Shown: positions 5,961-62,929, counted from the first letter of the stretch. The stretch is 64,000 bases of DNA from Candidatus Nomurabacteria bacterium (GCA_026395995.1 JAPLXQ010000010.1:146400-210399); one strand, 5' to 3'. Numbers and translations are program-made. Notes: generated by a model not told the origin, from the sequence alone.

Positions 5961-5983
5961 TAATAAATTTTAAAAAATAAATT

Positions 5984-8900: not shown

Positions 8901-9595
8901 TTCCAAAGAATGCAGCTATTGTTTCTCAGACAGATGGACAAATCATAGAAGTTAATGATAAATCTGGAAAAGATAAAACTATAAAAGTTTTGTCCGACAG
9001 TAAGGCTGATGGAAAATCAAATGAAATAGAATATGTCTTACCACCTTACCGATTACCATTAGTAAAAGTAGGTGAAAAGGTTACAAAAGGAAAAATCTTG
9101 ACTGATGGATCTGCTGATATTGCTGAAATATTCAAATATGGAAGTAAAGAACTTGCAGAAGAATATATTATTCGTGAAATTAATAAAGTTTACGAATTAC
9201 AAGGGGCTTCTATTTCACGTAAACATATTGAAATAATTATTCGTCAAATGTTCTCACGAAGAAGAATAAAAGAATCAGGTGATACAAACTTCTCTTCTGG
9301 TGATGTCGTAGAAAATACAGCTTTAATGGAAGAAAACATTCGTGTTGAAAGTACTGGTGGAACACCAGCAAAGGGTGAAATTATTGCTCTCGGTATTACT
9401 ACTGTTTCTCTTTGTACAAAGAGTTGGCTCTCAGCTGCTTCATTCCAAAACACAAACCGTGTTCTTATTGAAAATGCTATTAAGGGTGGAGTTGATTCAC
9501 TTAGAGGTCTAAAAGAAAATGTTATCATTGGTAGACTTATACCAGCTGGTACAGGTTTTCGAAAACACATTGTAAATCCTAGTACAGAAGAATAA
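5984..9595 (+). CDS. rpoC: DNA-directed RNA polymerase subunit beta'
   Basis: 1203 aa; zinc finger CYCGKYKRIRYKDIICEKCGVEV, catalytic NADFDGDQMAV, trigger-loop region. Confidence 0.97.
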   Translation: MKTLNTTDFDYITLSLASPEQIKEWSYGEVTKAETINYRTGRSERSGLFDERIFGPEKDYECYCGKYKRIRYKDIICEKCGVEVTRSIVRRERMGHIELATPVAHIWFLRGVPSRMSILLNVTVSDLEKVVYFAGYIVTKVYEEEKEKIIENLDREYKAKVKNSADEDTKEKLKILLSSTKKEIGEIYEGKVLNEISFHHYSLKYGTCFEANIGAEAIYSIFKNLDLNKLKIHTEKIIEKASVIEKEKMQKRLSLIRAMLYSKMRPEWMFLSIIPVIPPVLRPMVALEGGRHATSDLNDLYRRVINRNNRLKKLKEINAPDVILRNEKRIIQEAVDALIDNSIAKQGDSAAMSQSQKRALKSLSDNLKSKQGLFRQNLLGKRVDYSGRSVIVVGPQLKLNQCGLPKHMALELFRPFVISKILQAELAFNIRGANKLIEEGVPEVWAMLEEVIQGKYVLLNRAPTLHRLGIQAFNPILIEGNALQVHPLVCQAFNADFDGDQMAVYVPLSEEAQWEAKELMAANKNLLKPQNGDPIVNPRMDMVLGSYWMTKDVDGEKGEGKYFAGPNSAVMAYEHGVLALRAKIKIMGTDTQRYSKFEGKIFETTVGRILFNSILPSDFSYLNEEMNVKRLSSLVDELIMHYGIDATPPILDKIKNFGYKYSTISGTTWGIDNVKVPEEKKGIVAAGKKAQEEVVGQWKDGLLSEDEKYQKVQEIWTHAKKELEKVLPGTLDKNGSTYDLFTSGARGTMTSLSQMTGMKGLIQNNQGRTIEFPVIPSYIEGLSPLEYFITTHGARKGASDTALNTAKAGYLTRRLVDVSQDVVITEEDCGTKEGKTVSKENISGIEISLSKNLRGRVLAGDIKDEEGKVLYKKGFLITKEEALVIEKIGVKEAFVRSPLTCKTIHGLCQQCYGLDLGRNHLVDLGEAVGIIAAQAIGEPGTQLTLRTFHAGGVAGVDITAGLPRIEEIFERRIPKNAAIVSQTDGQIIEVNDKSGKDKTIKVLSDSKADGKSNEIEYVLPPYRLPLVKVGEKVTKGKILTDGSADIAEIFKYGSKELAEEYIIREINKVYELQGASISRKHIEIIIRQMFSRRRIKESGDTNFSSGDVVENTALMEENIRVESTGGTPAKGEIIALGITTVSLCTKSWLSAASFQNTNRVLIENAIKGGVDSLRGLKENVIIGRLIPAGTGFRKHIVNPSTEE

Positions 9596-9597
9596 AT

Positions 9598-11328
9598 ATG
9601 ATTAACTCTCCAGTACAACAAATCAAGGAGAGGCTTTCAATCGAAGACATAGTCTCTTCATATATAAAAATTGATAGAGTTGGCAATGCTTTAAAAGCAC
9701 GGTGTCCATTTCATAGTGAAAAATCTCCATCATTTTTTATTTCTCCCGAACGAGGAGGGTATTATTGTTTTGGTTGTGGTGCGAAAGGAGATATATTTAC
9801 TTTTGTTCAAGAATTTGAAGGACTTGATTTTCGTGGTGCGCTCAAGCTTTTAGCTGAGCGTGCCGGGGTCAAGCTCGGAACTTATAATCAAAAAGAAGAG
9901 AGCGAAAAAGAAAAACTCTATCGTGTAATGGATTTTGCTACACTCTTTTTTGAAAAGAATTTATTTACCAATAGAGATGCTATAGAGTATTTAAAGAATA
10001 GGGGACTTAAAGATGAAACCATAAAAGATTTTAGAATTGGTTATTCTTTGCTTGATTGGCGAACACTATATGATCATTTAAAATCTAAAAATTTCACAGA
10101 TAAAGAGATAGAACTTGCTGGTCTTGCAAAACATCCAGACGATGCCAATAAGGCTATGTATGATAGATTTCGTGGCCGGATAATGTTTCCAATTTCTGAT
10201 TCTAGTGGTAGAGTAATTGCTTTTTCAGGTAGAATTTTAGTCGATGATGGAAAATCTGCAAAATATTTAAATAGTCCTGAGACACCGATTTTCAATAAAT
10301 CCTCAGTACTTTTTGGTATCGACAAAGCTAAGGAATCAATAAGAAAAAATAATTTTTCTATTCTTGTCGAAGGGCAAATGGATTTGATTCTTTCTCATCA
10401 AGCTGGATTTAAAAATACAGTAGCTTCCTCTGGCACAGCCATGACTGACTCTGTTATTTCAAAAGAAAATATTATAAATAATTTAGGATTAATTCAAAGA
10501 TTATCAAAAAATATTGTTCTGGCTTATGATGCTGATAAAGCAGGAGTTAATGCTTCAAATCGTTTTGCAAAAATTGCTTTATCTCTCGGTATGGATGTAA
10601 AAGTAGCCCAAATGACAGAAGGAATGGATCCCGCAGATACTATATCAAAACTCGGTGTCGATGCTTGGCGTGAGGCAGTGAGAAACTCGAAACACTTTAT
10701 TGAATTTATGCTTATGCGCATCTTAAAAGATGCTGGAGGAGATAATAGAAAAGCAGGTAGAGATATAAAAGAGCGTTTACTGTCTTTTGTAAATGACCTT
10801 GATAGCTCAATAGAAAAATCTCATTTTATTACTCTCATTAGCAATAAATCAGGTATTGCTGAAAATGCTTTGCTAGAAGATTTAAAAAAAGTAGAGACTG
10901 AGTTAAAGAACGAAAAAGAAGAGACAAAAATTGCCAAAGAAAATGTCGAGAAAAAATTGAGAAAAGACCCAATAGAACGTAGGTTACTTGGTGTCGCTTT
11001 TTGGCAGGAAGGATTGGAAAAAAAGAAAATAGACCCAAATGTAATTTTTGAAAAATTAAATAAAGCTAAAGAAATTTACAAAGATATAAGAGAAGATTTA
11101 ATTTATGAAGCAGAGGAATTTTATTCAAATAATGAAGATTTAAATAAAGATGTAAATGAAATGCTGTGGGCTATAGAAGAAGAATATTTAAATGAAGAAC
11201 TTGCGAAAAATATGATTGAAATGCAAAGTTTAAAAGGAAAAGAGCAAGAAATAGAAATCTTAAAAAAGATTAATGAAATAAATAAAAGAAAAGAAGAAAT
11301 TAAAAATAAAAAAATGGTCGTTAAATAA
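9598..11328 (+). CDS. dnaG: DNA primase DnaG
   Basis: Zn-ribbon CPFHSEKSPSF...CFGCG; RNA-polymerase and TOPRIM region (EGQMDLI, AYDADKAG); coiled-coil Lys/Glu-rich C-terminus. Starts 2 bp after the rpoC stop. Confidence 0.9.
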   Translation: MINSPVQQIKERLSIEDIVSSYIKIDRVGNALKARCPFHSEKSPSFFISPERGGYYCFGCGAKGDIFTFVQEFEGLDFRGALKLLAERAGVKLGTYNQKEESEKEKLYRVMDFATLFFEKNLFTNRDAIEYLKNRGLKDETIKDFRIGYSLLDWRTLYDHLKSKNFTDKEIELAGLAKHPDDANKAMYDRFRGRIMFPISDSSGRVIAFSGRILVDDGKSAKYLNSPETPIFNKSSVLFGIDKAKESIRKNNFSILVEGQMDLILSHQAGFKNTVASSGTAMTDSVISKENIINNLGLIQRLSKNIVLAYDADKAGVNASNRFAKIALSLGMDVKVAQMTEGMDPADTISKLGVDAWREAVRNSKHFIEFMLMRILKDAGGDNRKAGRDIKERLLSFVNDLDSSIEKSHFITLISNKSGIAENALLEDLKKVETELKNEKEETKIAKENVEKKLRKDPIERRLLGVAFWQEGLEKKKIDPNVIFEKLNKAKEIYKDIREDLIYEAEEFYSNNEDLNKDVNEMLWAIEEEYLNEELAKNMIEMQSLKGKEQEIEILKKINEINKRKEEIKNKKMVVK

Positions 11329-46884: not shown

Positions 46885-48408
46885 TTAAGCGAAACCAGGG
46901 AAGAAGTCTATTTTAATATTACTACTAGGTACTCCCATAGATTTGAGAGTATTTTCAAATGCATCCACCATGCTATGTGGTCCAGAAATATAATAAATTT
47001 TATTTAAATAATTTGGAATTTCTTTGGCTATTACTTGGGCATTAATAAATCCAGCTTGCATATTTTCAGTCAATATTTCACCTTTATCTGTAATGGAATA
47101 AACTGTCTTTATTCCAAGTTCTTTTTGGGCTCGATCAAAAACATCCTTATAGGCAATATCTGAAACTTTTTTATTTGAATAGAGTACTGTAATATTTCTC
47201 TTTTCTTTTTTATCTATTAAATATTGAACCATACTTCTAAATGGTGTGACGCCAATACCTCCTGCAATAAATACTAAACCAAAACCTTTTTCTTTTGGTA
47301 AAACGAAGTCACCTGATTTTTGGGCGACAATGATTTCTCCGCCGACAGGCAAGGCTAATAAATGATTTTTAAAACTACTTGGTTCTGGGTAAAATTTTAC
47401 TCCTAAATGAATATCTTGTTCGGTAGGAGAGGAAGCTAGTGTAAAATATCTTCGGTTGCCACGAGAGTCTGGATCACGATGTTTGAGAGTCCATTCCATA
47501 TATTGTCCTGGTTTAAAAGAGAAATCTTGGTCTTTGGTAAAAATAAAATCAAAAGTATCGGTGGCTACTTGGACTCGGTCTTTTAATTTTAAGAATAGTT
47601 TTTCTTTTGGACTAACCAAATAAGCAAAAATATTTCCTATCACCAATGCAAGCTCTGGAGAAGAATAAATTCCACCTATATGTAATGATGGTGTAAATAA
47701 GGCTCCGACTATTATTCCAAAAACAACACGAAGCCATCTTGTAGTAGGTGCGGTGAGTGGCTCGGTAAGCATAATAAAAGCAAAGAAAAAGAAAGCGGAA
47801 TTTGCCATTGTTTTGAATAAAGCTGTCGGAATATTTGAACCTTTTAGCACTGTCAGTATTGTTACTGTTATTAATGCTGAAACAATAAAGCTAAAAAATA
47901 AATCAGCTCGACGAATTTTTCTTATTACCAAAAATCCACCAATCAATACTATTGGTAACATTGTCGGTGTTCCTATCCACCAAGAGGCAAATTGATTGAT
48001 TGTAAAAGCTGTCAGTACGACAGCAAAAGCTGCAGGGTTAAAAAGATGTTTTCGTCCAATTGCAAATATATATTTTGAAGCCATTGCCCAGATAGATGCC
48101 CAAATAGCAAATGGTAAAAATTCTGTATATACACCTCCTTGTGCTGGTGTGATTATAAAAAATAAAATTAAGGCTGTAATGTAGACAGATTCGACATTGG
48201 TCGGTGCGTCATAAGCATAAGAAAAAACCAGATTGGATATCCATGAGATAAATAAAATGATAAGTAATGAAGAAATAAGGTCGAGTGGGGTATAAGGTAA
48301 AAATTTAAATACAGATAATAAAAGAGCAAAAATAAAAAAAGACATAAGAATATAAAGAACTATTCTGTACATTGTTATTTTATTTAAAAAGTTGTCTATG
48401 TGGTTCAT
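46885..48408 (-). CDS. membrane oxidoreductase: polytopic N-terminal domain fused to an FNR-like FAD/NAD(P)-binding module
   Basis: ~8 TM helices, then RRYFTLASSP (RxYS FAD motif) and GGIGVTPFRSM (NAD-binding). NqrF/ferric-reductase-like. Confidence 0.6.
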   Translation of the reverse strand: MNHIDNFLNKITMYRIVLYILMSFFIFALLLSVFKFLPYTPLDLISSLLIILFISWISNLVFSYAYDAPTNVESVYITALILFFIITPAQGGVYTEFLPFAIWASIWAMASKYIFAIGRKHLFNPAAFAVVLTAFTINQFASWWIGTPTMLPIVLIGGFLVIRKIRRADLFFSFIVSALITVTILTVLKGSNIPTALFKTMANSAFFFFAFIMLTEPLTAPTTRWLRVVFGIIVGALFTPSLHIGGIYSSPELALVIGNIFAYLVSPKEKLFLKLKDRVQVATDTFDFIFTKDQDFSFKPGQYMEWTLKHRDPDSRGNRRYFTLASSPTEQDIHLGVKFYPEPSSFKNHLLALPVGGEIIVAQKSGDFVLPKEKGFGLVFIAGGIGVTPFRSMVQYLIDKKEKRNITVLYSNKKVSDIAYKDVFDRAQKELGIKTVYSITDKGEILTENMQAGFINAQVIAKEIPNYLNKIYYISGPHSMVDAFENTLKSMGVPSSNIKIDFFPGFA

Positions 48409-50719: not shown

Positions 50720-52984
50720 ATGAATACAAAAAATTACAAAGTAAAAGGAATGCATTGTGCGAGTTGTGCCAGTATTATCGAGCGCACTATGAAAAAAATT
50801 GATGGTGTATCAGAAGTTTCCGTAAACCCCGGTACTGAGAGTGCTAAAATTTCTTATGATGAAAGTAAGACTAATCCAGAAAGTTTAAACACAAAACTCG
50901 AAATACTTGGATATTCTTTAGGTTTAGAAAAACCACTAACTAGGACTGTCCTAGTTAGTGCTAAAGATGAAAAGTTGACTGAACTTAAATCAATGAAGTT
51001 AAAAATTATTTCAGCAATTCCTCTTGCAGTGATAAGTATTTTTGTAATGGCTTGGGATATTTTAGCTCAGTTTAAAACACAGTATAGTATGCCGTTGGTT
51101 TGGTCAGAATTTTTTCATCATCTTTTGCCTTTAATGGCGACATATATGCTCTTTGTTGTAGGTAAGCCTTATCTACAAGGTTTTTATCGTTTCCTTAAAA
51201 CAGGCAAAGCAAATATGGATACATTGATCGGGCTCGGCACGAGTGTCGCTTATATTTACAGCTTCATTGTCGGAGCTTTTGAAGAAACATTACTTAAAGA
51301 TTTTCCTAATGTTGGCGTGACGTATTTTGATGTGACGATTATTGTCATCACTTTTATCGCCCTTGGAAAATATTTGGAAACTCGTTCAAAGTTAAAAACA
51401 GGTGATGCAATAGAAAAACTTTTAAACTTACAAGCAAAAACTGCGCTCGTCGTTCGTGCGGGAAAAGAAATAGAAATTTCTGTGAATGAAGTTGTTCATG
51501 GAGATATTATTATTATCAAACCGGGAGCAAAAATTCCCGTGGACGGAACCATAGTAGAAGGGAATTCTTTTGTCGATGAATCAATGGTGACAGGTGAACC
51601 AATGCCAGTGAAAAAAAATATTGGAGATGTCGTAGTCGCAGGGACGATAAATACGACAGGCACTTTTAATTTCAAAGCCACAAAAGTCGGTAATGAAACA
51701 CTTCTAGCACAAATTATAAAAATGGTTGAAGAAGCGCAGAGTAGTAAAGCACCGATTCAAGCCATCGCTGATAAAATTTCGGCAATCTTTGTACCAATTG
51801 TTTTAGTAATTGCATTTATCACGCTCGGAGCTTGGCTTTTCTTTGCTTCAGGTCCGCTTGGTTTTTCACAAGCACTTTCTTTTGGGCTTATGTCATTTGT
51901 GGGCGTGCTGGTAATTGCTTGCCCTTGCGCGCTTGGCCTCGCTACACCGACGGCGATCATCGTCGGCGTTGGTAAAGGTGCCAAAGAAGGAATTTTAATT
52001 AAAGACGCAGCGACACTCGAGAAGCTCCATAAAGTAGATACTGTTATCGTCGACAAGACAGGTACGATAACAATCGGCAAGCCAACGCTCGTTGATATAG
52101 AAATTTTGTCGGCTGTAAAAGAGCCAGAATTTATTTCAATCATTGCATCATTAGAAAAAAAGTCAGAACATCCTATTGCTCACGCAATCCTTGAATTTGT
52201 GAAGGAAGGTCCTTCACAAATTTATGAAGTTTCAAATTTTGAAAACATAGAAGGTAAGGGAATCAAAGGAACAGTAAATGGAATTGAATATTTTGTCGGT
52301 AATGTGAAAATGATAAAAGATTTAGGAATTAATTTTGATGCGACAAAAATAGAACAATATACAATGCAGGGTAAAACTCCAGTCATTCTCGCGACAAAAG
52401 ATTCAGTCATTGGTTTTTTGACTGTCGCTGATGAAGTTAAAATTGAATCAAAACAAGCCATTACAGATTTGCACAAACTCGGCATCAAAGTAATTATGCT
52501 CACCGGCGATGATGAGAAAGCTGGAAAATATATGGCGTCACTCGTCGGCATCGATGAAGTCGTGGCGCATGTGATGCCAGTGGACAAGCTCGCGAAGATA
52601 AAAGAATTGCAAAATAGCGGGCGCGTCGTCGCTATGGCCGGAGACGGCGTGAACGACGCGCCCGCCCTAGCCCAAGCCGATGTCGGCATTGCTATGGGCA
52701 CAGGCACCGATGTGGCTATCGAGTCGGCAGGAATCACACTTCTCAATGGAGATATTTCCAAGCTCGTAAAAGCGATCAAACTTTCAAAAATCACCATGCG
52801 CGGAATTAAACAAAATCTTTTCTGGGCTTTCATATATAATATAGTAGGCATCCCGCTCGCCGCCGGCCTTTTCTACCCAATCTTCGGCTGGCTCCTGAAC
52901 CCCGTCTTCGCCGGCCTCGCAATGGCATTCTCCAGCGTTTCCGTCGTGTCGAATTCACTTAGAATTAAAATTAAAAAAATATAA
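50720..52984 (+). CDS. copA: copper-translocating P1B-type ATPase
   Basis: HMA domain [15 protein letters not shown] motif ([11 protein letters not shown]), DKTGT phosphorylation site, [10 protein letters not shown]. Confidence 0.92.
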
Positions 52985-52986
52985 TT

Positions 52987-54036
52987 ATGAAAAAATACAC
53001 ATTACATGTTTCGGGGACACATTGCGCATCGTGCAAGATATTGATTGAAGATATTTTGATGGATTCGACAAGCTCACCACAAGCCGAGCAAATTTTAGTT
53101 AAAAGTGCAAAAGTAGATTTAAAAAAAGAAATAGTTGAAATTGAAACTGATAGTGAAAAACCAGTTGAGGAATTAGTAAATATTTTAAATGAAAAAGTTA
53201 AAGGGAATAAATATACTCTTTCACTAGAAGAAATCGTTAGGCAAGACCTAACGATTTCTGACGATGTGATTTGGAAAGCGATACCTATTGGTTTAGTTTT
53301 TTTAGTATTATTTTTTCTTCTACAAAAATCAGGACTGCTCAATCTCGGCATTGGTGGCAAGACGACACCGACGACGAGTTTTATTATCGGAATTATCGCT
53401 TCGCTTTCGAGCTGTCTCGCAATCGTCGGCGGGCTGGTCCTTTCTTTATCTGCCAAAGTCGCGCAGGATGACCAAGGCAATCCAAAGTCTACAAAGAAAC
53501 CTTTCATCCTTTTCCACGCAGGGCGATTGCTCGGCTTCGCGGTACTCGGCGGAGTGCTCGGCCTCGTCGGCAAAGCAATTGGAATAAATTTTATTTTCTC
53601 AGCAATTCTCGGAATTATTGCATCTGTCGTGATGATCTTGCTCGGCATAAATTTGCTCGGCATTATCAAGAAAAATAAAATTACCTTGCCAAGCGGAATT
53701 TTTTCCTTTTTTCGAAAAGCTGAACACACGACTTTAGCACCGCTTCTCATTGGTATCGGCACCTTTTTCTTGCCTTGCGGTTTCACTCAATCAATGCAAG
53801 TCTCGGCACTTTCTAGTGGATCTTTTACATCTGGATTTTTAATTATGTTAGCTTTTGCTCTCGGCACATTGCCAGTGCTCGCACTTCTTTCTTTCGGTTC
53901 TGTATCATTCGCACATTCCAAGAATGCACCACTCTTTTTTAAATCTGCGGGAGTGATAGTCCTAGGTCTCGGAATCTTCGCACTCTTGGCAGGGCTGGCA
54001 GGCCTCGGTATTATCAATCCATTATTTAATATATAA
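52987..54036 (+). CDS. heavy-metal-associated (HMA) domain fused to a CcdA/DsbD-type transmembrane domain
   Basis: GTHCASCKILIE HMA motif; 6-8 TM helices with paired Cys (SSCLA..., FLPCGFTQ). Confidence 0.65.
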   Translation: MKKYTLHVSGTHCASCKILIEDILMDSTSSPQAEQILVKSAKVDLKKEIVEIETDSEKPVEELVNILNEKVKGNKYTLSLEEIVRQDLTISDDVIWKAIPIGLVFLVLFFLLQKSGLLNLGIGGKTTPTTSFIIGIIASLSSCLAIVGGLVLSLSAKVAQDDQGNPKSTKKPFILFHAGRLLGFAVLGGVLGLVGKAIGINFIFSAILGIIASVVMILLGINLLGIIKKNKITLPSGIFSFFRKAEHTTLAPLLIGIGTFFLPCGFTQSMQVSALSSGSFTSGFLIMLAFALGTLPVLALLSFGSVSFAHSKNAPLFFKSAGVIVLGLGIFALLAGLAGLGIINPLFNI

Positions 54037-54039
54037 AAT

Positions 54040-54453
54040 ATGAATACAAATAAAATTATTTCAATAGTTGTCACAGTCGCACTCTTGGCCGGCATTATTT
54101 TTATCATTACTAAAAGTCCAAAATCTAAAAATGAAGAAGGTGGAATATATGGTCAATCAGTTGTTTCAAACGTAACAATGAAAGACGGAGTGCAATATAT
54201 AACTATTGATGCGACAAATGGTTACAATCCAAAAATTACAAATGCCAAAGCTGGTATACCAACAAAATTAATTATGAAAACCAATGGAGCTTTTAGTTGT
54301 TCTTCTGCTCTTGTAATTCATTCATTAAATTATCAAAAAATGTTGCCCCAAACAGGGGAGACAGAAATAGATATCGGCATACCAAAAGCCGGCGAGCCAT
54401 TACAAGGCATTTGCGGAATGGGAATGTATAATTTTTCTGTGAATTTTAATTAA
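54040..54453 (+). CDS. small secreted protein, possible metal-binding (Cys/His/Met-containing, cupredoxin-like?)
   Basis: Signal anchor; FSCSSALVIHS and GICGMGMY motifs. Speculative. Confidence 0.3.
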   Translation: MNTNKIISIVVTVALLAGIIFIITKSPKSKNEEGGIYGQSVVSNVTMKDGVQYITIDATNGYNPKITNAKAGIPTKLIMKTNGAFSCSSALVIHSLNYQKMLPQTGETEIDIGIPKAGEPLQGICGMGMYNFSVNFN

Positions 54454-54497
54454 TAAGCCTTCATGAAAATTTCATAAAAAGGTGGTATCATTAAAGA

Positions 54498-55169
54498 ATG
54501 AAGATTCTTTTGGTGGAAGACAATCAAAAATTGGCTGAAAATATTAAACAAGGGCTCGTGCAAGAGAGCTATTCTGTCGATATTATTGAAGATGGAGCTG
54601 TAGCGGAAAAGCGGATTTTAATGAGCGTGACTGATTATGATTTAGTTATTTTAGATCGAATGCTTCCAAATAAAGACGGCGTTTCTATTTGTAAAGAATG
54701 GCGTGAAAAGGGAATTATTATTCCTGTGATAATGCTCACAGCGCTCGATACAGTCGAAGACAAAGTCGATGGTCTCGAAGCTGGTGCAGACGATTATTTA
54801 GCCAAACCTTTCGCCTTCAAAGAATTGTTGGCTCGAATTCACGCATTGCTTCGCCGACCACAATTAATTTTTCCAGAAATGCTTACTTTTGGAAAATTGA
54901 ATTTAAATACAAAATCCAGAGTGGCATATTTCAAAGAAAAACCATTGTCGCTGACATTGAAAGAATTCATGGTCCTAGAATATTTAATGCGTAATCCAAA
55001 TAAAGTAATTACTCGAGATACATTGTATTCACATGCTTGGGATTTTGCCGATTCATCATTTAGTAATACGGTCGACGTACATATTAAAAATTTAAGAAGA
55101 AAAATTAACGACAATGGAAAAATTATCCAAACAGTTCGAGGGGTGGGTTACAAAATGGAAGACAGATAG
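54498..55169 (+). CDS. OmpR-family response regulator
   Basis: Receiver domain (D at LDRMLP), winged-helix C-terminus (RVAYFKEKPLSLTLKEF, GVGYKM). Confidence 0.9.
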   Translation: MKILLVEDNQKLAENIKQGLVQESYSVDIIEDGAVAEKRILMSVTDYDLVILDRMLPNKDGVSICKEWREKGIIIPVIMLTALDTVEDKVDGLEAGADDYLAKPFAFKELLARIHALLRRPQLIFPEMLTFGKLNLNTKSRVAYFKEKPLSLTLKEFMVLEYLMRNPNKVITRDTLYSHAWDFADSSFSNTVDVHIKNLRRKINDNGKIIQTVRGVGYKMEDR

Positions 55170-56124
55170 TTTTTTGATTGCCAGAATTAAACTAACCTTT
55201 TTTTATTTTCTGACGGCTTCTGTAATTTTAATTGTGGCTAGTTCTATTTTATATCGAACTTTTCTTTTTAATATTACTGAATCAGTTAATTTGAATGTCG
55301 ACGATGAAGATGTCGCTCAAGTTTTAGTCGATAGAACACAAGATATTTTATTGAATAAATTTATTACGACAGATAGTTCTATTTTGATTGTAATTATTGT
55401 TTGCGGATTTTTATTAACCAAGAAATCTCTAGACCCAATTCGAGAAAATATGAAAAGACAAAAGAGGTTTATTGCTGATGCTTCTCACGAATTGCGTACA
55501 CCTATTGCTATCGCCATTTCAGGGCTGGAAGTGGCTATGAGTAATAAAAATTTTAATATAGATATTGCCAAAAAAACACTTTCAAATACATTAGAAGAAA
55601 TGCAAGATCTTTCTAAGTTAACCAATAATTTACTAGATGTGACTAAATATAATGTTAGTAGTTCATCTGTGTACGAACCTTTGCAAATCAATGAAGTCAT
55701 TTCACAAGCAGTAGAAAAAATGAAAGCTTTAGCTAAAGCAAAAGAAATAGAAATAAAAAATGAAATTAAAGAACAAGTAAATGTTTTAGGAAATAAAACA
55801 GAAATTGAGCGAATTGTTTATAATATTATAAACAATTCACTCGCACATACTCCTAATGAGGGGATTGTTACTATTTCTGATTTTATCAATAAAAAAGAGT
55901 ATATTATTTCAATTACTGACAATGGTTCTGGTATTTCAAAAGAAAATTTAGATAAAATTTTCGATCCATTTTTTCAAGGCGATACATCAAGGAATAATGG
56001 TGGGGCAGGGCTCGGTTTAACTCTTGCTAAAAAAATAATTGAAAATCACAAAGGAAAAATAACCATAAAAAGTGAATTAAATAAAGGTACAAACGTAATA
56101 ATCAAACTCCCTATTTCTTCATAA
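55114..56124 (+). CDS. sensor histidine kinase
   Basis: 2 TM helices, H-box ASHELRTPIA, N/G1/G2 boxes (NNSLAHTP, DNGSGI, GGAGLGL). The annotated start overlaps the regulator by 56 bp; the true start may be downstream. Confidence 0.85.
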   Translation: MEKLSKQFEGWVTKWKTDSFLIARIKLTFFYFLTASVILIVASSILYRTFLFNITESVNLNVDDEDVAQVLVDRTQDILLNKFITTDSSILIVIIVCGFLLTKKSLDPIRENMKRQKRFIADASHELRTPIAIAISGLEVAMSNKNFNIDIAKKTLSNTLEEMQDLSKLTNNLLDVTKYNVSSSSVYEPLQINEVISQAVEKMKALAKAKEIEIKNEIKEQVNVLGNKTEIERIVYNIINNSLAHTPNEGIVTISDFINKKEYIISITDNGSGISKENLDKIFDPFFQGDTSRNNGGAGLGLTLAKKIIENHKGKITIKSELNKGTNVIIKLPISS

Positions 56125-56270: not shown

Positions 56271-56726
56271 ATGAAATATAAAAAACAAATTACAACTAGT
56301 GTCCTCGCATTGTCTTTATTGATGGTCAGTTCTTCAGCTTTTGCTGCTACAAATGTAGTACCACAAGGAGCTACAGTTAATCACGTAGAAACTAAAGCAA
56401 AAGAAACAACACACGCTAAAACAAAAGTAACTGGAGTGGTTAGTGTTGTTAGTGCCGATGGTGCAAGTTTTACTGTGACTGTAAAAAATCGAAAAACAAA
56501 TACAACAACTTCATTTGACGTACAAACAACAGCAGCAACAAAATTTACTAAAGATGGTAAATTAGCCACCATGGCTGATGTCGCATTAAATACAAAAGTT
56601 ATTGTTTCTGGAAAAGTAGATTCTACTGCAAATACTATTTCTGCAAATAAGGTAAGATTGGTTACAAAGAAAGTGGCCATGAATCCTTCTAAAGAAAGCA
56701 AAATAGATAAAACAAAAACTAATTAA
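56271..56726 (+). CDS. secreted Thr/Lys-rich hypothetical protein
   Basis: Signal peptide ...SSAFAATNV; low-complexity T-rich body. Confidence 0.4.
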   Translation: MKYKKQITTSVLALSLLMVSSSAFAATNVVPQGATVNHVETKAKETTHAKTKVTGVVSVVSADGASFTVTVKNRKTNTTTSFDVQTTAATKFTKDGKLATMADVALNTKVIVSGKVDSTANTISANKVRLVTKKVAMNPSKESKIDKTKTN

Positions 56727-56740
56727 CTAAACAAATAAAA

Positions 56741-56768
56741 AAACACCTATAATTAGGTGTTTTTTTAT
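56741..56768 (+). terminator. rho-independent terminator
   Basis: aaacaccta-taat-taggtgttt then ttttatt. Confidence 0.55.
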
Positions 56769-56810
56769 TTGTTTAGTTTTTATTATGTTATAATTACTAT
56801 AAACATATAT

Positions 56811-58382
56811 ATGGAAAAACTTCCACCAAAAAAATTTAAAGCAAAAGTTGATTCTATCGAGACCATTGCAAAAGGTGTAAAAAAAATAACATTTAAAATA
56901 AATGATAATTTTAATTTTTTAGTCGGCCAATATGTTTGGGCTGAAATTCCAGAATTAAAAATCAAAGACCCAAAAGGTAATCGTCGCGCATTTTCTATTT
57001 TTAATTTACCGAATAATGATAACAAGATTTCAATTGTTGCCAGGACCAGTGAAAGTGGATATAAACAAGAATTATTTGCTTTAAATGTTGGAGATGAAAT
57101 ATATGGTCATGGACCATTTGGTAGTGCTTTTGTTGCTGATTATCATAAAGATACAAATCTTATTTTTATTGCTGGTGGTGTGGGTATTGCTCCTTTTATT
57201 CCAATAATTCAAAATATAAAATCTCAGTCTTTACCAATAAAGACTTTCTTGGTTTATTTAAATAAAGATAAAGAAAACACACCATTTGTGTCTGAATTAA
57301 AGTCTTTGAAAAATGACAATTTTAATTACGAGATTGTTTATGGTGATTTTTCTTGGGACCTTGTTAAAAATTCTTGTGTTAACTTGGGAAAGGAAATTAA
57401 ATGGTTAATTGCTGGTCCACAAGGTCTGGTGGATCAGGTCTATTTAGAATTAGAAAAGAGTGGAATTTCTAAATTAAATATGGTCTTTGAAAATTATTAC
57501 CCAACATTAAAAAATAATTTAACAAAAAAAATAATAGAAGATCAGCTTTTTGTTGAAAATGTTTTTGCTAAAGCAATTCAAAATTCTACAAACCATACTG
57601 TCATTACCGATGTTAATGGTATTGTTTTATATGCTAATAAGGCTGCTCAAGATATTACAGGCTATTCTCTTGAAGAAATTTTAGGCAATACACCACGTCT
57701 TTGGGGAGGGATGATGAGTCATGAATATTATGTTGATTTCTGGAAGAAGAAAATGTCAGGAGAACCATTTCAGGGTGAAATAATGAATCGTAGGAAGAAT
57801 GGTGAGATTTATTATACAGTAGCGCATATTGCTCCGATTTTATCATCAGACAAGACTATTATAGGATTTGTCGGTACAGAAGAAGATATTTCGATTCTTA
57901 AGAAAAAAGAACAAGAAATTATTGATAAATCAGTAGAATTGGATACATTTTTTAGTACAGCAAACGACCTCATGTGTATTGCTGGTATTGATGGATATTT
58001 TAAAAGAATTAATCCAAAATTTAAAGAAATCTTATCTTATGAAGAAAAAGATTTATTAGGATCTGTTTTTATTAGTTTTGTACACCCAGAAGATGTCGAA
58101 TATACAAATAATATTATAAAAAAATTATCACAAGGTGAAAAGATTGTTAGTTTTAAAAATAGATTTCATAAAAAAGATGGTTCATATGTCTGGCTTGAAT
58201 GGAATGCTGCACCTAACGGTGAATACTTATATGCTATTGCTCGTGATATTACAGAAGATATTAAAAATAAAGAAATTATGGAAGAAAAAAATGCTGAGCT
58301 TGAAAAAATGAATAAATTTATGATTGGAAGAGAGTTAAAAATGATAGAATTAAAAGAAGAAATTAATAAATTAAAAAATTAA
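56811..58382 (+). CDS. cytoplasmic sensor: FNR-like flavin/NAD-binding reductase domain, two PAS domains and a C-terminal coiled-coil peptide; no output domain
   Basis: RRAFSIFNLP and GGVGIAPFIPI (FNR-like); two PAS folds (ITGYSLEEILG..., ...MCIAGIDGYF...). Start moved to the Met at 56811 because 56757-56810 overlaps the upstream terminator. Confidence 0.6.
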   Translation: MEKLPPKKFKAKVDSIETIAKGVKKITFKINDNFNFLVGQYVWAEIPELKIKDPKGNRRAFSIFNLPNNDNKISIVARTSESGYKQELFALNVGDEIYGHGPFGSAFVADYHKDTNLIFIAGGVGIAPFIPIIQNIKSQSLPIKTFLVYLNKDKENTPFVSELKSLKNDNFNYEIVYGDFSWDLVKNSCVNLGKEIKWLIAGPQGLVDQVYLELEKSGISKLNMVFENYYPTLKNNLTKKIIEDQLFVENVFAKAIQNSTNHTVITDVNGIVLYANKAAQDITGYSLEEILGNTPRLWGGMMSHEYYVDFWKKKMSGEPFQGEIMNRRKNGEIYYTVAHIAPILSSDKTIIGFVGTEEDISILKKKEQEIIDKSVELDTFFSTANDLMCIAGIDGYFKRINPKFKEILSYEEKDLLGSVFISFVHPEDVEYTNNIIKKLSQGEKIVSFKNRFHKKDGSYVWLEWNAAPNGEYLYAIARDITEDIKNKEIMEEKNAELEKMNKFMIGRELKMIELKEEINKLKN

Positions 58383-58399
58383 CTAGAATAATTATTCTT

Positions 58400-60475
58400 A
58401 TGGAAGAACATAAAATAATAAATAAAAAAATACTATTTCTCAGTAAATCTAATATTTTAATATTTAGTATTATTTTGTTTAGTATTATTTGGATTTTTTT
58501 TCTAGCTCCACAAATTTTAAAAATTCCAAAAGATTTTTCTTATAAAGCTGATGTTATATCTGTCGATAATCTATATGATAAAAGTAGTAATGAATTTAGT
58601 GGGGAGAGTTACTCAAAGACCAAATTCTCATACGAAACCATTTCGAGTAGTGATAATAACTTAATGATAAAGAATAGTTTTGATGTAAAAACTATTGATG
58701 GAAAGCAAATTTTTAAAACAGATAGATTGTACGGTATCAACTCTTTGACAGGCGAACATGTAAAAGGGTTAGGGGATAAAGATAGAGAAGGTTATTTATT
58801 TGCTCCTCGTGGAATAAAAAAGGGTCAATCTTATACATATTGGCATGTTGATGTTAATACCCCAGCAACGATGAATTTTGTTGGTGAGGAGAATTTGTAT
58901 GGTTTAAATGTCTATAAATATGAGACTAATTACGGGGGAGCTATAGATCAAACTGCTAATTTTGTTTTTTTGCCGGAAGTCGGTAAGACTCTTGGTGTAA
59001 AACTTTTATCTAAAAATTATTTATGGATTGAACCAGTTTCCGGTTATCTAGTTAAACAGCAAGATATGTCTACTGATTATTATTTTTATGATCTTAAAAC
59101 TGGTGAGAAGTTGTACCCATATAATCAATTTTCAAATATTTTTTCAGAAAAAAGTACAGAAGAGCATACCTTAATTGCTAAAAAGTTAAAGACTGAGATT
59201 ATTGTTGCGAATTACCTTATCCCAATAATTTTATTTATTTTGGCTATTATAATGTTAGCATTAAAACTTAGCTATTTTGATAGAATTCTTACTTTCGTTA
59301 AGAGTAATTTTATATTAATTTTTGTTACAATTGTAATGTTTTTGGGTAGTTTCACTGGTTATTATTTTTTAGTTAATGGTTTTGATAAAGAAAAACAAGT
59401 TTCTTTAGAAACTCAATCAATAGATATAACTGAAAAAATATTAAATAAAACATCTAATTATTTACGTTTACCATTAAATGGACGCGCCTTGTTTAATGCT
59501 AGTGTAAGTGTGGAGAGAAATGAATGGTCTGCTTTTGTAAAGTCTTTAGATTTATTACAAAACTATCCAGGAGTTCAAGGTTTAGGTTTTCTAAAAATAG
59601 TGTTACCTAATGAAAAGAATCTTTTTGTTCAATCTGTAAAAAAAGAAGGTTTTTCTGATTTTAATATTATCCCAGTAGGAGATAGAAATATATACACACC
59701 TGTAATTTATTTGGAACCATGGACACCTAGAAATATCAGAGACTTAGGGTTTGATATGTTTTCAAATAAAATTACAAGAAACTCTATAATTAAAGCCAGA
59801 GATTCTGGAGAAATTTCAGTTTCTTCAAAGGTAGCGCTTCTTCAAGATAATGGAACTGGTTCACAATTTGGTTTTTTTGCTTTTTCACCAGTCTATAAAA
59901 ATAATTCCAAGGTAGGCACTGTAGAAGAAAGAAGAAAAGAAATAATTGGCTATACTTATTATTCATCTATGATAAAAGATTTTTTAACAAGTATTTTTAA
60001 TAATCAGAAATATGATTTAGATTTTAAAATTTATGATGGCCTAAAGATTAGCAATGAATCACTTATTTATGATTCTGGTAATGGATCTATTTCTAATAAT
60101 GTTTTTTTTCACAAAGTAGAAACAATCTATTTAAAAGATCATCCTTGGACGATTGAATATGTAAATTCTTCAAATTACCAAAAACCTTTAATAGATAAGG
60201 TTATTCAATATTCAGTTCTTTTTGGAAGTTTACTTGTTACTTTTTTAGTTTTTAGTTTAATTTTATCTATTTCTAAATCAAAAGAAAGTTCTGTTTTATA
60301 TGCAGCTTCTTTGACCAAAGATTTAGAAGCAAAACAGGATGAGTTAAAGAAAAATAATCAAACCTTAAAAGAAAAATTAAATGAAGTTGATAAAATGAAT
60401 AAATTGATGATAGGTAGAGAGCTCACAATGTTAGATCTTAAAAAGGAAATTGATAAATTAAAGAGAAAAATATGA
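58400..60475 (+). CDS. membrane sensor with a periplasmic domain and a CHASE-like domain, ending in the same C-terminal coiled-coil peptide; no output domain
   Basis: TM segments at ~20-40, ~265-330 and ~610-630. CHASE-like pattern (NEWSAFVKSLDLLQNYPGVQGLGFLKIV ... GFFAFSPVY). C-terminus DKMNKLMIGRELTMLDLKKEIDKLK. Confidence 0.55.
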   Translation: MEEHKIINKKILFLSKSNILIFSIILFSIIWIFFLAPQILKIPKDFSYKADVISVDNLYDKSSNEFSGESYSKTKFSYETISSSDNNLMIKNSFDVKTIDGKQIFKTDRLYGINSLTGEHVKGLGDKDREGYLFAPRGIKKGQSYTYWHVDVNTPATMNFVGEENLYGLNVYKYETNYGGAIDQTANFVFLPEVGKTLGVKLLSKNYLWIEPVSGYLVKQQDMSTDYYFYDLKTGEKLYPYNQFSNIFSEKSTEEHTLIAKKLKTEIIVANYLIPIILFILAIIMLALKLSYFDRILTFVKSNFILIFVTIVMFLGSFTGYYFLVNGFDKEKQVSLETQSIDITEKILNKTSNYLRLPLNGRALFNASVSVERNEWSAFVKSLDLLQNYPGVQGLGFLKIVLPNEKNLFVQSVKKEGFSDFNIIPVGDRNIYTPVIYLEPWTPRNIRDLGFDMFSNKITRNSIIKARDSGEISVSSKVALLQDNGTGSQFGFFAFSPVYKNNSKVGTVEERRKEIIGYTYYSSMIKDFLTSIFNNQKYDLDFKIYDGLKISNESLIYDSGNGSISNNVFFHKVETIYLKDHPWTIEYVNSSNYQKPLIDKVIQYSVLFGSLLVTFLVFSLILSISKSKESSVLYAASLTKDLEAKQDELKKNNQTLKEKLNEVDKMNKLMIGRELTMLDLKKEIDKLKRKI

Positions 60476-62274
60476 GTTTTTTAAATAAAAAAGATAATAC
60501 TTTCTTAAGTACCCCGATTACATCTATGCGATGTAGGCTTTTAAAAGTTCTTTCTTATATAGCAATCGTAGTCTTATTCGTTTTTGGTTTTTTGAATATA
60601 TTTCCACAAAATAATTTTTTTGTTGGTTTTGTACAGTTGGTTATTGGTGTATTTTTAATGTTAAATGTACTTTTTTTAAAAAAGTTTAATAATTTTAAAT
60701 TAGCCTCTTTAGTTTTTATCTTTACTTTGTTTTTTATAATGATTTTTCTATTTTGTACTGGAGGATATCAAGACACTGGTATTTATTGGTTTTGTTTATT
60801 TCCGTTAATTGTTTACTTTTTACGTGGTAGAAAATACGGTTTATATTTTAGTATACTTTTTATATTAACTATTTTGTTTATCTATATATTTAAGGGGTCA
60901 TTTGTGCCGTATAATTTTATTCAAATTAGACAGGTATTATCTAGTTTTATTACAATATCTTTGATTACACATTTTTATTTATCAATAGAAGAAAAAGACT
61001 CAGAGTCTTTAGAAGAAAACGAAAATAAATTAAAATCTATAAATCAAAAGTTGCAAGATGAAATACAGAATAGTGATTTAATTAAAAAAGAGTTATCGGA
61101 AAACATTTTAGATTCTGAAAATACCAAAAAAGCAGTTTTAAATATTCTAGAAGATGTTCAGGACGAAAAGATAAAAGTAGAGAAAATTTCTCAAAAATTA
61201 ACTTTGGCTACAAAGTCTGCAAAGATTGGTGTGTGGGAATGGGATATTGTAAAAAATAAATTAAGCTGGGACAATATAATGTGTGTTCTTTATGGTATAA
61301 AACCTGAAGATTTTAGGGGTATTTATGAGACTTGGTTAGAAAAATTACACCCAGATGATAAAAAGCATGCTAACGAAGAAATGCAAACTACTTTAAGTGG
61401 CGGTAAAGATTTTGATACAGTTTTTCGTGTTATTTGGCCAAATCAAGAAATTCATTACATTAAAGCTTATGCATCCTTAGAATCTGACATTAATGGTAAA
61501 CCAATAAAAATGGTTGGAATCAATTTTGATGTTAGTCATGATAAAGAAGTAGATATTGAAAAAACAGAATTCGTTTCTTTGGCTTCGCATCAATTAAAAA
61601 CACCGGTCGGTGCTTTAAATTGGAATTTAGAATTATTACTTGGAGGTGATTATGGAAAAATCACAGAAAAACAAAGAGAAATTATTTCTGATATGTATAA
61701 AATGAACCAAAGGATGAATGATTTAATAAATAGTCTTTTGAATGTTTCTCGTATTGATCTTGGTGTTTTTATTATTGAACCAGTGCCGACTAATTGGGTT
61801 GATATGTGCGATGAAGTTCTTGCTGAATTGGATTCTAAAATAAAAATCAAAAATCATATTATTACTAAAAAATATATTGGTGATTTGGCTACTATTCCAG
61901 CTGACCCAAAGCTCTTGAGAATAATTTTTCAAAACTATATTTCTAATGCAGTCAAATACACCCATGGTAGTGGTGTAATAAATATTATTGTTGAAAACAA
62001 AAATGATGAAGTTTTAATTAGTGTTTCCAATAATGGTGATTCTATTCCAGAAAAAGAAAAAAGTAGAATTTTCAGTAAATTATTCAGAGCTAGTAATGCT
62101 CAAGAACAAGACCCAGATGGAAATGGTCTTGGTCTTTATATTGTTAAAAAGATTGCTGAAAATGGCGGTGGTAGAGTTTGGTTTGAGTCTAGAGAGGGCA
62201 AAGATACAGTCTTTTATGCTTCTTTTCCTGTTTCTGGTATGATTAAAAGAGAGGGTGAAAAGGTATTAGTTTAG
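60472..62274 (+). CDS. sensor histidine kinase (5-6 TM N-terminal domain, PAS, HisKA, HATPase)
   Basis: PAS (IGVWEWDIVKNKLSWDN), H-box LASHQLKTPV, N/G boxes (NAVKYTHGSG, DPDGNGLGLYIVKKI). Confidence 0.85.
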   Translation: MSFLNKKDNTFLSTPITSMRCRLLKVLSYIAIVVLFVFGFLNIFPQNNFFVGFVQLVIGVFLMLNVLFLKKFNNFKLASLVFIFTLFFIMIFLFCTGGYQDTGIYWFCLFPLIVYFLRGRKYGLYFSILFILTILFIYIFKGSFVPYNFIQIRQVLSSFITISLITHFYLSIEEKDSESLEENENKLKSINQKLQDEIQNSDLIKKELSENILDSENTKKAVLNILEDVQDEKIKVEKISQKLTLATKSAKIGVWEWDIVKNKLSWDNIMCVLYGIKPEDFRGIYETWLEKLHPDDKKHANEEMQTTLSGGKDFDTVFRVIWPNQEIHYIKAYASLESDINGKPIKMVGINFDVSHDKEVDIEKTEFVSLASHQLKTPVGALNWNLELLLGGDYGKITEKQREIISDMYKMNQRMNDLINSLLNVSRIDLGVFIIEPVPTNWVDMCDEVLAELDSKIKIKNHIITKKYIGDLATIPADPKLLRIIFQNYISNAVKYTHGSGVINIIVENKNDEVLISVSNNGDSIPEKEKSRIFSKLFRASNAQEQDPDGNGLGLYIVKKIAENGGGRVWFESREGKDTVFYASFPVSGMIKREGEKVLV

Positions 62275-62293
62275 ATTATATAAAAATAATTAT

Positions 62294-62671
62294 ATGGAAG
62301 ATAAAAAAACAATCTTAATTGTAGAAGATGAAAAATCTATTAGTGGTGCTTTGAGTGATAAATTAAACAATGAAGGATATACGATCCTTCAAGCTAAAAA
62401 CGGTGAGGAGGGTCTAAAAATAGCCTTAAAGGAACATCCAGATTTGATGCTAGTTGATATTTTAATGCCTAAGATGGATGGTATTAAAATGGCGAAAGAG
62501 TTGAGAAAAGATATTTGGGGTAAGACTGCAAAGATAATTATTCTAACTAATGTTACAGATTTGAATCAAGTTCAAGAGGTTATGGATAGTGAGGTTTTTG
62601 AATATTTAACAAAGAGTAATGTCACTTTAGAATATCTTACAAATAAAGTTAAAGATTTTTTAAATAGATAA
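62294..62671 (+). CDS. single-domain response regulator (CheY-like receiver)
   Basis: ILIVEDE, phospho-acceptor D in LMLVDILMP, KIIILT..., K in YLTKS. Confidence 0.85.
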   Translation: MEDKKTILIVEDEKSISGALSDKLNNEGYTILQAKNGEEGLKIALKEHPDLMLVDILMPKMDGIKMAKELRKDIWGKTAKIIILTNVTDLNQVQEVMDSEVFEYLTKSNVTLEYLTNKVKDFLNR

Positions 62672-62874: not shown

Positions 62875-62888
62875 ACTTAGAAAATAAA

Positions 62889-62929
62889 ATTGCCCCGTTG
62901 CTTATAGCAACGGGGCAATTGGTTTTTTT
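62889..62929 (+). terminator. rho-independent terminator (ATTGCCCC-N-GGGGCAAT type)
   Basis: attgccccgttgc-ttatag-caacggggcaat then tggttttttt. Confidence 0.55.

Follow-up and report, generated by a model that had tools for sequence, protein, structure and literature searches.

This report concerns a 64,000-nucleotide stretch of DNA from a Candidatus Nomurabacteria bacterium (GCA_026395995.1 JAPLXQ010000010.1:146400-210399, hereafter the window), and in particular a unit of four consecutive open reading frames, ORF1 to ORF4, in which two kinase-less sensor proteins are followed by a histidine kinase (HK) and a receiver-only response regulator. The two sensors, ORF1 and ORF2, both end in ELEKMNKFMIGRELKMIELK-type helices. 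Judged from its sequence, this tail would be a dimeric coiled coil acting as a dedicated C-terminal coupling module. The reading favored here is that the tail couples each sensor in trans to the adjacent kinase, in the window via a second conserved helix, designated LN, which is carried by the kinase; we regard the case for this reading as evenly balanced. What is new is a short portable helix common to dozens of sensor architectures, usually accompanied by a matching kinase helix. Loci fetched for comparison are designated by L-numbers, and database homologues of ORF1 and ORF2 by P-numbers (P0002-P0241).

An earlier note on this DNA, made from the sequence alone, had delimited the two sensor genes and typed all four, and Pfam and NCBIfam agree with its description (Table 1). 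It had also reported a common tail of ~27 residues with ~75% nucleotide identity, both proteins stopping right after it. Identity amounts to 19 of 27 residues and 64 of 81 nucleotides (79%), and the stop codon follows the 27-residue motif after 1 residue in ORF1 and after 3 in ORF2. The absence of a kinase, cyclase or other output in both sensors was confirmed as well, an output domain being found by neither Pfam nor NCBIfam. The likeness greatly exceeds what chance would give: the tail profile scores 51.3 bits on ORF1 and 46.0 bits on ORF2, the next best of the 197 ORFs of the window reaching 1.9 bits, and a six-frame regular expression search of the window returned these two copies only. In the AF2 model of ORF1 (pLDDT 90), the tail forms one long helix (residues 481-522) leaving the second PAS domain. 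Gene conversion between the two window tails was considered and found no support: at identical residues the codons are the same in 10 cases and different in 6, which gives no sign of a recent event.

The tail displays a well-defined register. Its consensus, anchored on the invariant Arg-Glu pair, reads E-L-E-[KR]-[FLM]-N-[KR]-h-M-V-[GD]-R-E-L-[KR]-M-[IV]-E-L-K-x-x-I-x-x-L. Across 123 tails from loci with a GC content of 0.30 to 0.71, positions N-6, R0, E+1, L+2, M+4, L+7 and K+8 are 87-100% conserved and the heptad a/d series comprises L-10, F/M-7, M-3, R0, M+4, L+7, I+11 and L+14, positions c, d and e being occupied by G (80%) or D, R (100%) and E (100%). Further hydrophobic residues at g(-4), b(-2), f(+2) and b(+5) surround the invariant G-R-E and could pack against additional helices. 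The possibility raised in the earlier note that the motif is generic K/E-rich sequence without a register is not borne out: low complexity is ruled out by the conserved register (N-6, R0, E+1, M+4, L+7 and K+8) and by the specificity of the profile within the window. The core of the tail is net basic (R0, K+3, K+8, K+9) and that of LN net acidic (E, D, D, E), a pairing that would suit a heteromeric helix bundle. As for homology between the two helices, comparison of tail and LN gave a weak lead-in match only (probability 6%).

Tails of the same locus resemble each other. In eight loci holding both an FNR-family and a PorA-CHASE-family tail, similarity is 0.604 within a locus versus 0.543 between loci (exact permutation p = 0.0011); KMNK.MIGREL, for instance, occurs in both window tails and KINKIMI[DN]RE in both tails of L016. 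Such likeness is what would be expected if both tails had adapted to one partner, but it could also stem from gene conversion or from drift in composition.

The profile search beyond the window that the earlier note had proposed revealed a widespread motif with a conserved register. Among 1.84 billion representatives, the 37-column tail profile matched 13,728 clusters with E<=1e-3, of which 157 reached E<=1e-10, and a metagenome scan for EL[KR]M[IV]ELK yielded at least 478 confirmed cases among the 600 matches listed. Named carriers belong to the candidate phyla radiation (CPR), Magnetococcales, Bacteroidales, Nitrospirota and Aeromonas caviae. In all 123 complete ORFs of the fetched loci, the profile match ends 1-35 residues (median 10) before the stop codon; in GC-rich lineages the tail is extended, with the type ...ELCRRLGEPPRY. 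The few internal copies belong to double modules (sensor-tail-TM-CHASE-tail and PAS-tail-CBS-tail, TM denoting a transmembrane segment) resembling fused tandem genes. The Pfam families found on 87 high-scoring carriers of at least 150 residues are PAS (57), HAMP (15), dCache (9), PocR (8), CHASE (5) and REC (5), together with GAF, CBS, MASE1/3, CHASE4, SBP and one CheR; HisKA, HATPase, GGDEF and EAL are absent from the 25 commonest families of these carriers. Within the loci, a kinase shares an ORF with the tail in one case only, the HK-REC-tail protein of L073 (4006-6546). No covering model for the tail was found in Pfam or NCBIfam, as examined with ORF1, ORF2 and short tail proteins, and the PDB holds no sequence relative of the tail peptide, the tail profile or the LN profile. 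Literature searches with motif strings and with the concepts of split or trans-acting sensors gave nothing relevant, although their coverage was incomplete and an earlier description is possible. Within the libraries that could be searched, the tail module therefore appears undescribed.

Several carriers deserve separate mention. Receiver-tail proteins are encoded in L029 (7011-8516), L046 (2232-2873 and 5573-7168), L078 (2338-3435) and L093 (277-1398); a tail placed on a phosphorylatable receiver suggests phosphorylation-gated coupling to the next kinase. A cultivable carrier is Aeromonas caviae KAM479 (L108, NZ_AP026896.1 2572481-2586603), where a REC-HD-GYP gene is followed by that of a 729-residue protein with three PAS domains and a tail (4985-7174), which overlaps the gene of a 1323-residue DUF4118-PAS x4-HK-REC-Hpt kinase (7171-11142). 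Although labelled a plasmid, the record NZ_AP026896.1 has a length of 4.9 Mb, and in PLSDB it bears hardly any annotation.

The relationship between tail and kinase is most apparent in families where both split and fused proteins exist. About 30 output-less PorA-CHASE homologues, 35-48% identical to ORF2, all end in the tail motif, whereas the relatives of 1000-1200 residues that continue into PAS-HisKA-HATPase lack it. Similarly, some 60 kinase-less FNR-PAS(-PAS) homologues of ORF1 end in the tail and every kinase-fused one is devoid of it. The stop position and the motif are kept in ~90 homologues at 35-60% identity. When both profiles were applied to P0002-P0241, 89 proteins had the tail alone and 13 had LN alone; no protein carried the two together and 138 carried neither. 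After their last TM segment, the fused PorA-CHASE-PAS-HK homologues continue with the linker that joins MASE6 to PAS_3 in ORF3, TKKAVLNVLEDVQDEK...IGVWEWD, the consensus of which in the fused proteins is ...LE(R/N)TKKA(V/M)LN(I/V)LEDVQ.EKDK...ATESA.IGVWEWD. The arrangements are interchangeable: FNR-PAS-PAS-tail accompanies PorA-CHASE-LN-PAS-HK in L001 and L017, PorA-CHASE-tail accompanies FNR-PAS-LN-PAS-HK in L018, and both sensors carry tails next to a separate LN kinase in the window, L005 and L016. Fused and split forms are equivalent within the same families. Separately, in L002 and L003, two metagenome-assembled genomes of Candidatus Peribacteria, the PorA-CHASE-PAS-HK homologue, when read with translation table 11, falls apart into numerous short ORFs, which could reflect pseudogenes, assembly errors or a different genetic code.

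The LN motif, LE.TKKAVLNILEDVQ.EK, is located in ORF3 between MASE6 and PAS. The earlier note had described ORF3 as a PAS-histidine kinase followed by a receiver-only regulator; this was correct, except that the MASE6 membrane domain had been missed. Tail genes in general lie directly upstream of histidine kinases, often as 2-5 tail genes, a kinase and then 1-3 receiver-only regulators, and the arrangement of the window, an output-less tail sensor directly upstream of an LN kinase, recurs in 37 loci. In the first 19 loci and the window, 9 of 844 ORFs matched the LN regular expression, and 8 of these are kinases adjoining tail genes. Both profiles were then applied to 103 loci, a neighbor being defined as a tail gene ending within 1.5 kb upstream of the kinase. 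Such a gene precedes 27 kinases with LN and 14 without, and is missing for 6 with LN and 29 without (odds ratio 9.3, p = 2e-5); several of the seeming exceptions come down to artefacts of ORF calling or to weak motifs of the LN type. Inside the two CPR families, the partition is nearly complete (p = 3.4e-5), a tail neighbor being present for 10 LN kinases and absent for one (L100), and absent for all 10 kinases lacking LN. In a prospective test with four LN kinases of unknown context, three had tail genes directly upstream, on sensor types that were new (PAS-PAS, PAS_3, GAF-PAS and GAF), as compared with none of four non-LN kinases of the same families.

The association extends to kinases reduced to a minimum. 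In L070, L076 and L037, LN is found at residue 17-22 and is followed by HisKA-HATPase. The motif is repeated four times before HisKA_2-HATPase in L038 (767-1729), five times before HisKA in L049 (6458-7237), and as about ten 21-residue repeats before HisKA-HATPase in L067 (845-2263), the consensus of the 21-residue repeat in these three proteins being RLE.TQRA[IV]LNILEDF..EK. These kinases directly follow 1-5 tail sensors, such as 7TM-PAS, SBP-PAS, CHASE4-PAS or flavodoxin-like proteins, so that kinase-less sensors adjoin kinases made of LN and a catalytic core, themselves sensor-less. No simple relation was seen between the number of LN repeats and that of tail genes.

The following mechanism is proposed. 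ORF1-ORF4 would encode a two-component system that is split, receives several inputs and is held together by docking of the tails. The tails of ORF1 and ORF2 would dock in trans onto the adjacent kinase ORF3, the most likely site being the acidic LN helix (KKAVLNILEDVQDEK) that lies between MASE6 and PAS. In this way, one kinase could be modulated by several sensors, and ORF3 would phosphorylate the receiver-only ORF4. According to the predicted topology, the ORF2 tail lies in the cytoplasm; the LN helix, coming after the MASE6 membrane segments, is expected there too. Binding of the tail, its contact site and the sign of the regulation are all putative. A docking motif allowing different inputs to engage the downstream kinase, one of the options of the earlier note, is the best-supported reading, in view of the C-terminal position of the tail, its presence on output-less sensors beside kinases, its correlation with the kinase LN helix and the occurrence of fused and split forms in the same families.

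A number of observations weigh against this reading. The sampling of loci was partly conditioned on the presence of the tail or of LN, and shared ancestry could inflate their association. About one quarter of the kinase-bearing tail loci (L098, L046, L029 and L073 among them) have no LN-like motif, and neither has the Aeromonas caviae kinase beside the PAS x3-tail protein. The LN kinase of L100 has no tail gene within 8 kb, and LN and tail reside on the same chain in L037 (6861-8153) and L048 (242-838). It is because LN is not universal, because of the L100 exception and because of these cis proteins that our confidence in tail coupling in trans goes no further than an even balance. In the cis proteins, the LN-profile match ends from a few to ~35 residues before the tail-profile match; examples are a 7TM-PAS-LN-tail protein and small proteins of ~198 residues in tandem, and such proteins may be adaptors chaining sensors together.

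Other explanations have to be weighed against docking. The tail could be a homo- or hetero-oligomerisation coiled coil and nothing else, an S-helix-like cap dimerising stand-alone sensors or tying ORF1 to ORF2; kinase signalling, if any, would then proceed through other surfaces, for instance PAS-PAS contacts, or through a diffusible/redox intermediate, and the LN correlation would reflect shared lineage. The regular a/d heptad with an Arg at 'd', as in the S-helix (PMC1592074), is in keeping with this idea, which also accommodates the tail loci without LN, the frequent tandem sets of 2-5 tail genes and the co-variation of tails within a locus, this last being equally compatible with tail-tail pairing. 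It is less easily reconciled with loci having a single tail (L018, L045, L070), with kinases consisting of LN and DHp-CA only, which offer no PAS to contact, with the extra hydrophobic b/f/g faces, which suggest more than a two-helix coil, and with the tracking of tail neighbors by LN inside the same families (10/11 vs 0/10). We consider oligomerisation alone rather unlikely.

The resemblance of [VI]-G-R-E-L-K to the [VI]-S-H-E-L-R of kinases raises another possibility, namely that the tail imitates the beginning of the DHp helix with the H-box His changed to Arg, and acts as a pseudo-substrate or anti-kinase inserting at DHp or CA. MAFFT indeed places GRELK under the SHELR of the kinase-fused P0134; this alignment, however, requires a shift of 2-3 residues that alters the heptad register, a profile-profile comparison of the tail with HisKA alpha1 gave no match (hhalign probability 0.4%), and Pfam HisKA does not score on the tails of ORF1 and ORF2. 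Such mimicry seems improbable, and a tail serving as a genuine HisKA/DHp phospho-acceptor helix was rejected on the same hhalign and Pfam results and on the replacement of His by Arg. That ORF1 and ORF2 are decayed or truncated kinases, produced by fission, frameshift or a sequencing artefact, with a tail likeness due to K/E-rich low complexity, is scarcely credible. Kinase-fused relatives of both do exist, but the stop and a register-specific motif are kept in ~90 homologues and in over 100 unrelated sensors, both ORF2 and ORF3 begin with conserved membrane domains of their own, and no other match in the window exceeds 2 bits. The conserved stop positions in the ~90 homologues rule out a frameshift or fission artefact, and, together with the codon use of the two tails, argue for rejecting the remnant of a recombination swapping sensor modules that the earlier note had offered as its other option.

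Auxiliary or 'third-component' sensors acting on kinases in trans are known from MCP-CheW-CheA arrays, KinB-KapB and NtrB-PII. By analogy, this class would be functionally the closest to docking by the tail: the sensor is a polypeptide distinct from the kinase and encoded along with it, and one kinase receives several inputs. The tail differs in being a short, portable and conserved helix borne by dozens of unrelated sensor architectures, often paired with a conserved kinase helix, no adaptor protein being evident. The fused CPR kinases PorA-CHASE-PAS-HisKA-HATPase and FNR-PAS-HisKA-HATPase (P0008, P0016 and P0134 among others) have sensor modules 40-50% identical to those of the window, and in P0008 and P0016 the LN-PAS_3-kinase cassette of ORF3 follows the CHASE module; in the window, by contrast, sensors and kinase are separate and the sensors carry the tail, which the fused forms never do. 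The S-helix is a parallel coiled coil of ~40 residues leaving a PAS domain or TM segment, with a conserved Arg at heptad 'd', a conserved Asn upstream, ERT at c, d and e, and a signalling domain on either side (Anantharaman, Balaji and Aravind 2006, PMC1592074). The tail shares the heptad coiled coil of about 40 residues, the Arg at the core 'd' position and the upstream Asn. It differs by its G-R-E signature in place of E-R-T, by the additional hydrophobic b/f/g positions and by its terminal position, at most 35 residues from the stop instead of between sensor and output. The suggestion of the earlier note that it is a signalling-helix segment normally preceding an output finds no support: the tail essentially never precedes one and the likeness is confined to heptad logic. 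A J-alpha coiled coil at the C-terminus makes certain short LOV/PAS proteins, such as those of Pseudomonas putida cited in PMC13322254, likewise output-less PAS sensors ending in a dimeric helix. No sequence relation to them was seen, although none was searched for; the tail is a specific motif and is linked to kinases by gene context.

ORF1 is predicted to be soluble. Its FNR module is recognized by PF00970 (26.9 bits, cut-off 21.1) and PF00175 (22.0 bits, cut-off 22), and the motifs RAFS, GPFG and AGGxGIxP are at least 90% conserved across 120 homologues. The hallmarks of the FNR-like (ferredoxin-NADP reductase) superfamily, the R-x-Y/F-S motif of the FAD-binding beta-barrel and the G-G-x-G-x-x-P of the NAD(P) Rossmann fold, are present, cofactor binding being a prediction. 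In Foldseek comparisons, the domain superposes on BenC, NqrF and flavohaemoglobin, all three at ~1e-14, and on the SpNOX dehydrogenase domain. For the PAS pair, the nearest matches (NCBIfam, Foldseek) are Brucella LOV-PAS-HK, NifL and MmoS; the LOV cysteine is absent, the residues at that place being GNTPRLWGG. ORF1 is thus probably a cytoplasmic redox or NAD(P)H sensor, such an input being plausible. The use of an FNR-like fold as sensor input, which the earlier note had found unusual, is not an isolated case: FNR-PAS modules are common in CPR bacteria, with the tail as well as fused to kinases.

ORF2 had been described as a membrane CHASE-like sensor. Its CHASE domain scores 165 bits with PF03924 (cut-off 25) and is flanked by TM segments at residues 300-323 and 606-624, as expected of an extracytoplasmic domain; the description has to be corrected to two extracytoplasmic domains, PorA/PgfA-like and CHASE, and four TM segments. 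With four hydrophobic segments, both sensor domains are predicted to face outward and the tail to be cytoplasmic, and ORF2 would accordingly be an envelope sensor. The classical CHASE receptors that are known continue into a cytoplasmic output such as a kinase or cyclase, whereas only 67 cytoplasmic residues, ending in the tail, come after the fourth TM segment of ORF2. As an N-terminal domain, the PorA/PgfA-like module of CPR bacteria occurs in fusion with ABC-type solute-binding domains as well (PF04392, NMT1/PF09084; P0081-P0102), which suggests that it is of general use in anchoring to the envelope or in ligand binding and is not a porin. Ligand assignments for ORF1 and ORF2 are putative throughout.

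Table 1. Features of the four-gene unit, in window coordinates (aa, amino acid residues)
Feature	Coordinates	Strand	Basis
AT-rich terminator-like hairpin preceding ORF1, at the beginning of the four-gene unit	56728..56775	+	
ORF1, kinase-less soluble sensor: FNR-like flavin/NAD(P) module, NifL/LOV-like PAS, PAS_3, tail	56811..58382	+	Pfam, NCBIfam, AF2, Foldseek
ORF1 FNR-like domain, aa 5-232	56823..57506	+	Pfam, NCBIfam, conserved motifs, Foldseek
ORF1 tandem PAS domains, aa 254-485	57570..58265	+	Pfam, Foldseek
ORF1 C-terminal tail helix, aa 481-522	58251..58376	+	Tail profile, AF2 single long helix
ORF1 27-aa tail core ELEKMNKFMIGRELKMIELKEEINKLK	58296-58376	+	ORF1/ORF2 tail comparison
ORF2, kinase-less membrane sensor: TM1, PorA/PgfA-like, TM2, TM3, CHASE, TM4, tail	58400..60475	+	Pfam, NCBIfam, topology
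ORF2 PorA/PgfA-like extracytoplasmic domain, aa 27-288	58478..59263	+	Pfam, NCBIfam
ORF2 CHASE domain, aa 370-557	59507..60070	+	Pfam 2e-48
ORF2 tail core EVDKMNKLMIGRELTMLDLKKEIDKLK, aa 662-688, predicted cytoplasmic after TM4	60383..60463	+	Tail profile, topology
ORF3, histidine kinase: MASE6, LN helix, PAS_3, HisKA, HATPase_c	60472..62274	+	Pfam
ORF3 LN motif ENILDSENTKKAVLNILEDVQDEKIKVEKI, aa 210-239, proposed socket for tails	61099..61188	+	LN profile, 40.1 bits
ORF4, receiver-only response regulator	62294..62671	+	Pfam
Bidirectional terminator-like hairpin, 15 bp stem, closing the unit	62888..62920	.	

ORF1-ORF4 form one operon-like unit bracketed by the two terminator-like hairpins. ORF1 and ORF2 are separated by 17 nucleotides, the ORF3 start overlaps the ORF2 stop by 4 (ATGA), and 19 separate ORF3 from ORF4. 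ORF1 comprises 523 residues from its ATG and is 100% identical to the database protein P0122; the 691 residues of ORF2 are identical to P0002, annotated as Candidatus Nomurabacteria. The Pfam scores of ORF3 (HisKA 47 bits, HATPase_c 84, MASE6 60) and ORF4 (REC 83), with an H-box in HisKA, identify a two-component pair.

The window as a whole is a chromosomal stretch of a low-GC CPR bacterium and includes rpoB, rpoC, dnaG, rpoD and uvrABC. Directly upstream of the cluster, positions 50720-56124 hold a copper-handling set (an HMA-P-type copper ATPase, an HMA-DsbD_2 protein and a cupredoxin-like protein) followed by an OmpR-type regulator (54498-55169) and its kinase (55114-56124), the ORFs of which overlap by 56 nucleotides; the homologous sensor cluster of L016 is flanked by the same copper genes. 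Between this set and the sensor operon, a 151-residue protein (56271-56726) displays a signal-peptide-like N-terminus and a T/V/K-rich composition, with no Pfam match. On the minus strand, 46885-48408 encodes a 507-residue protein in which an NQR2/RnfD/RnfE-like membrane domain is joined to an FNR-type NAD_binding_1 domain, an unusual fusion. It is resembled by a FAD_binding_8/NAD_binding_1 protein of L105, located beside ApbE and FMN_bind genes and adjoining a kinase.

Downstream of an FNR-PAS-GAF-PAS kinase, L107 (10858-14743) encodes a KaiC-like ATPase together with two proteins, one MASE3-only and the other dCache-HAMP, that have neither an output domain nor a tail; other output-less modes therefore exist. 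In CPR relatives, a type IV pilus block (REC, MshEN/T2SSE ATPase, T2SSF and pilins) repeatedly adjoins the sensor-kinase cluster, as in L016 (306-5794), L018 (1-6890), L100 (241-7903), L102 (730-6636), L104 (435-7152) and L106 (2338-7935), which hints that these systems control pili in those organisms. No such block lies near the cluster in the window, where copper-handling genes are found instead. Given pilus genes and a receiver-only regulator in related loci, the output may be protein-protein control by ORF4.

A broader view, which we put forward tentatively and hold to be somewhat doubtful, is that tail and LN form a general, portable 'plug-and-socket' code in CPR, Proteobacteria, Bacteroidota and Nitrospirota, by which sensor kinases are assembled combinatorially from separate genes. 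Any sensor ending in the plug would be wired in trans to a kinase carrying one or more sockets, the LN arrays, with their 21-residue repeat in up to about ten copies, would be multi-dock scaffolds, and the REC-tail and LN-tail proteins would be phosphorylation-gated or chaining adaptors.

Thousands of output-less proteins are annotated as 'PAS domain S-box protein' or 'CHASE domain-containing protein' and have no known signalling route. If the proposal is true, a tail helix tying sensors to the adjacent kinase would supply a mechanism for them and would explain as well the existence of kinases without a sensor domain. The integration of several inputs by a single kinase, here of an intracellular redox signal and an envelope cue, would likewise become understandable, and synthetic biology would gain a small natural connector for the rewiring of sensors to kinases.

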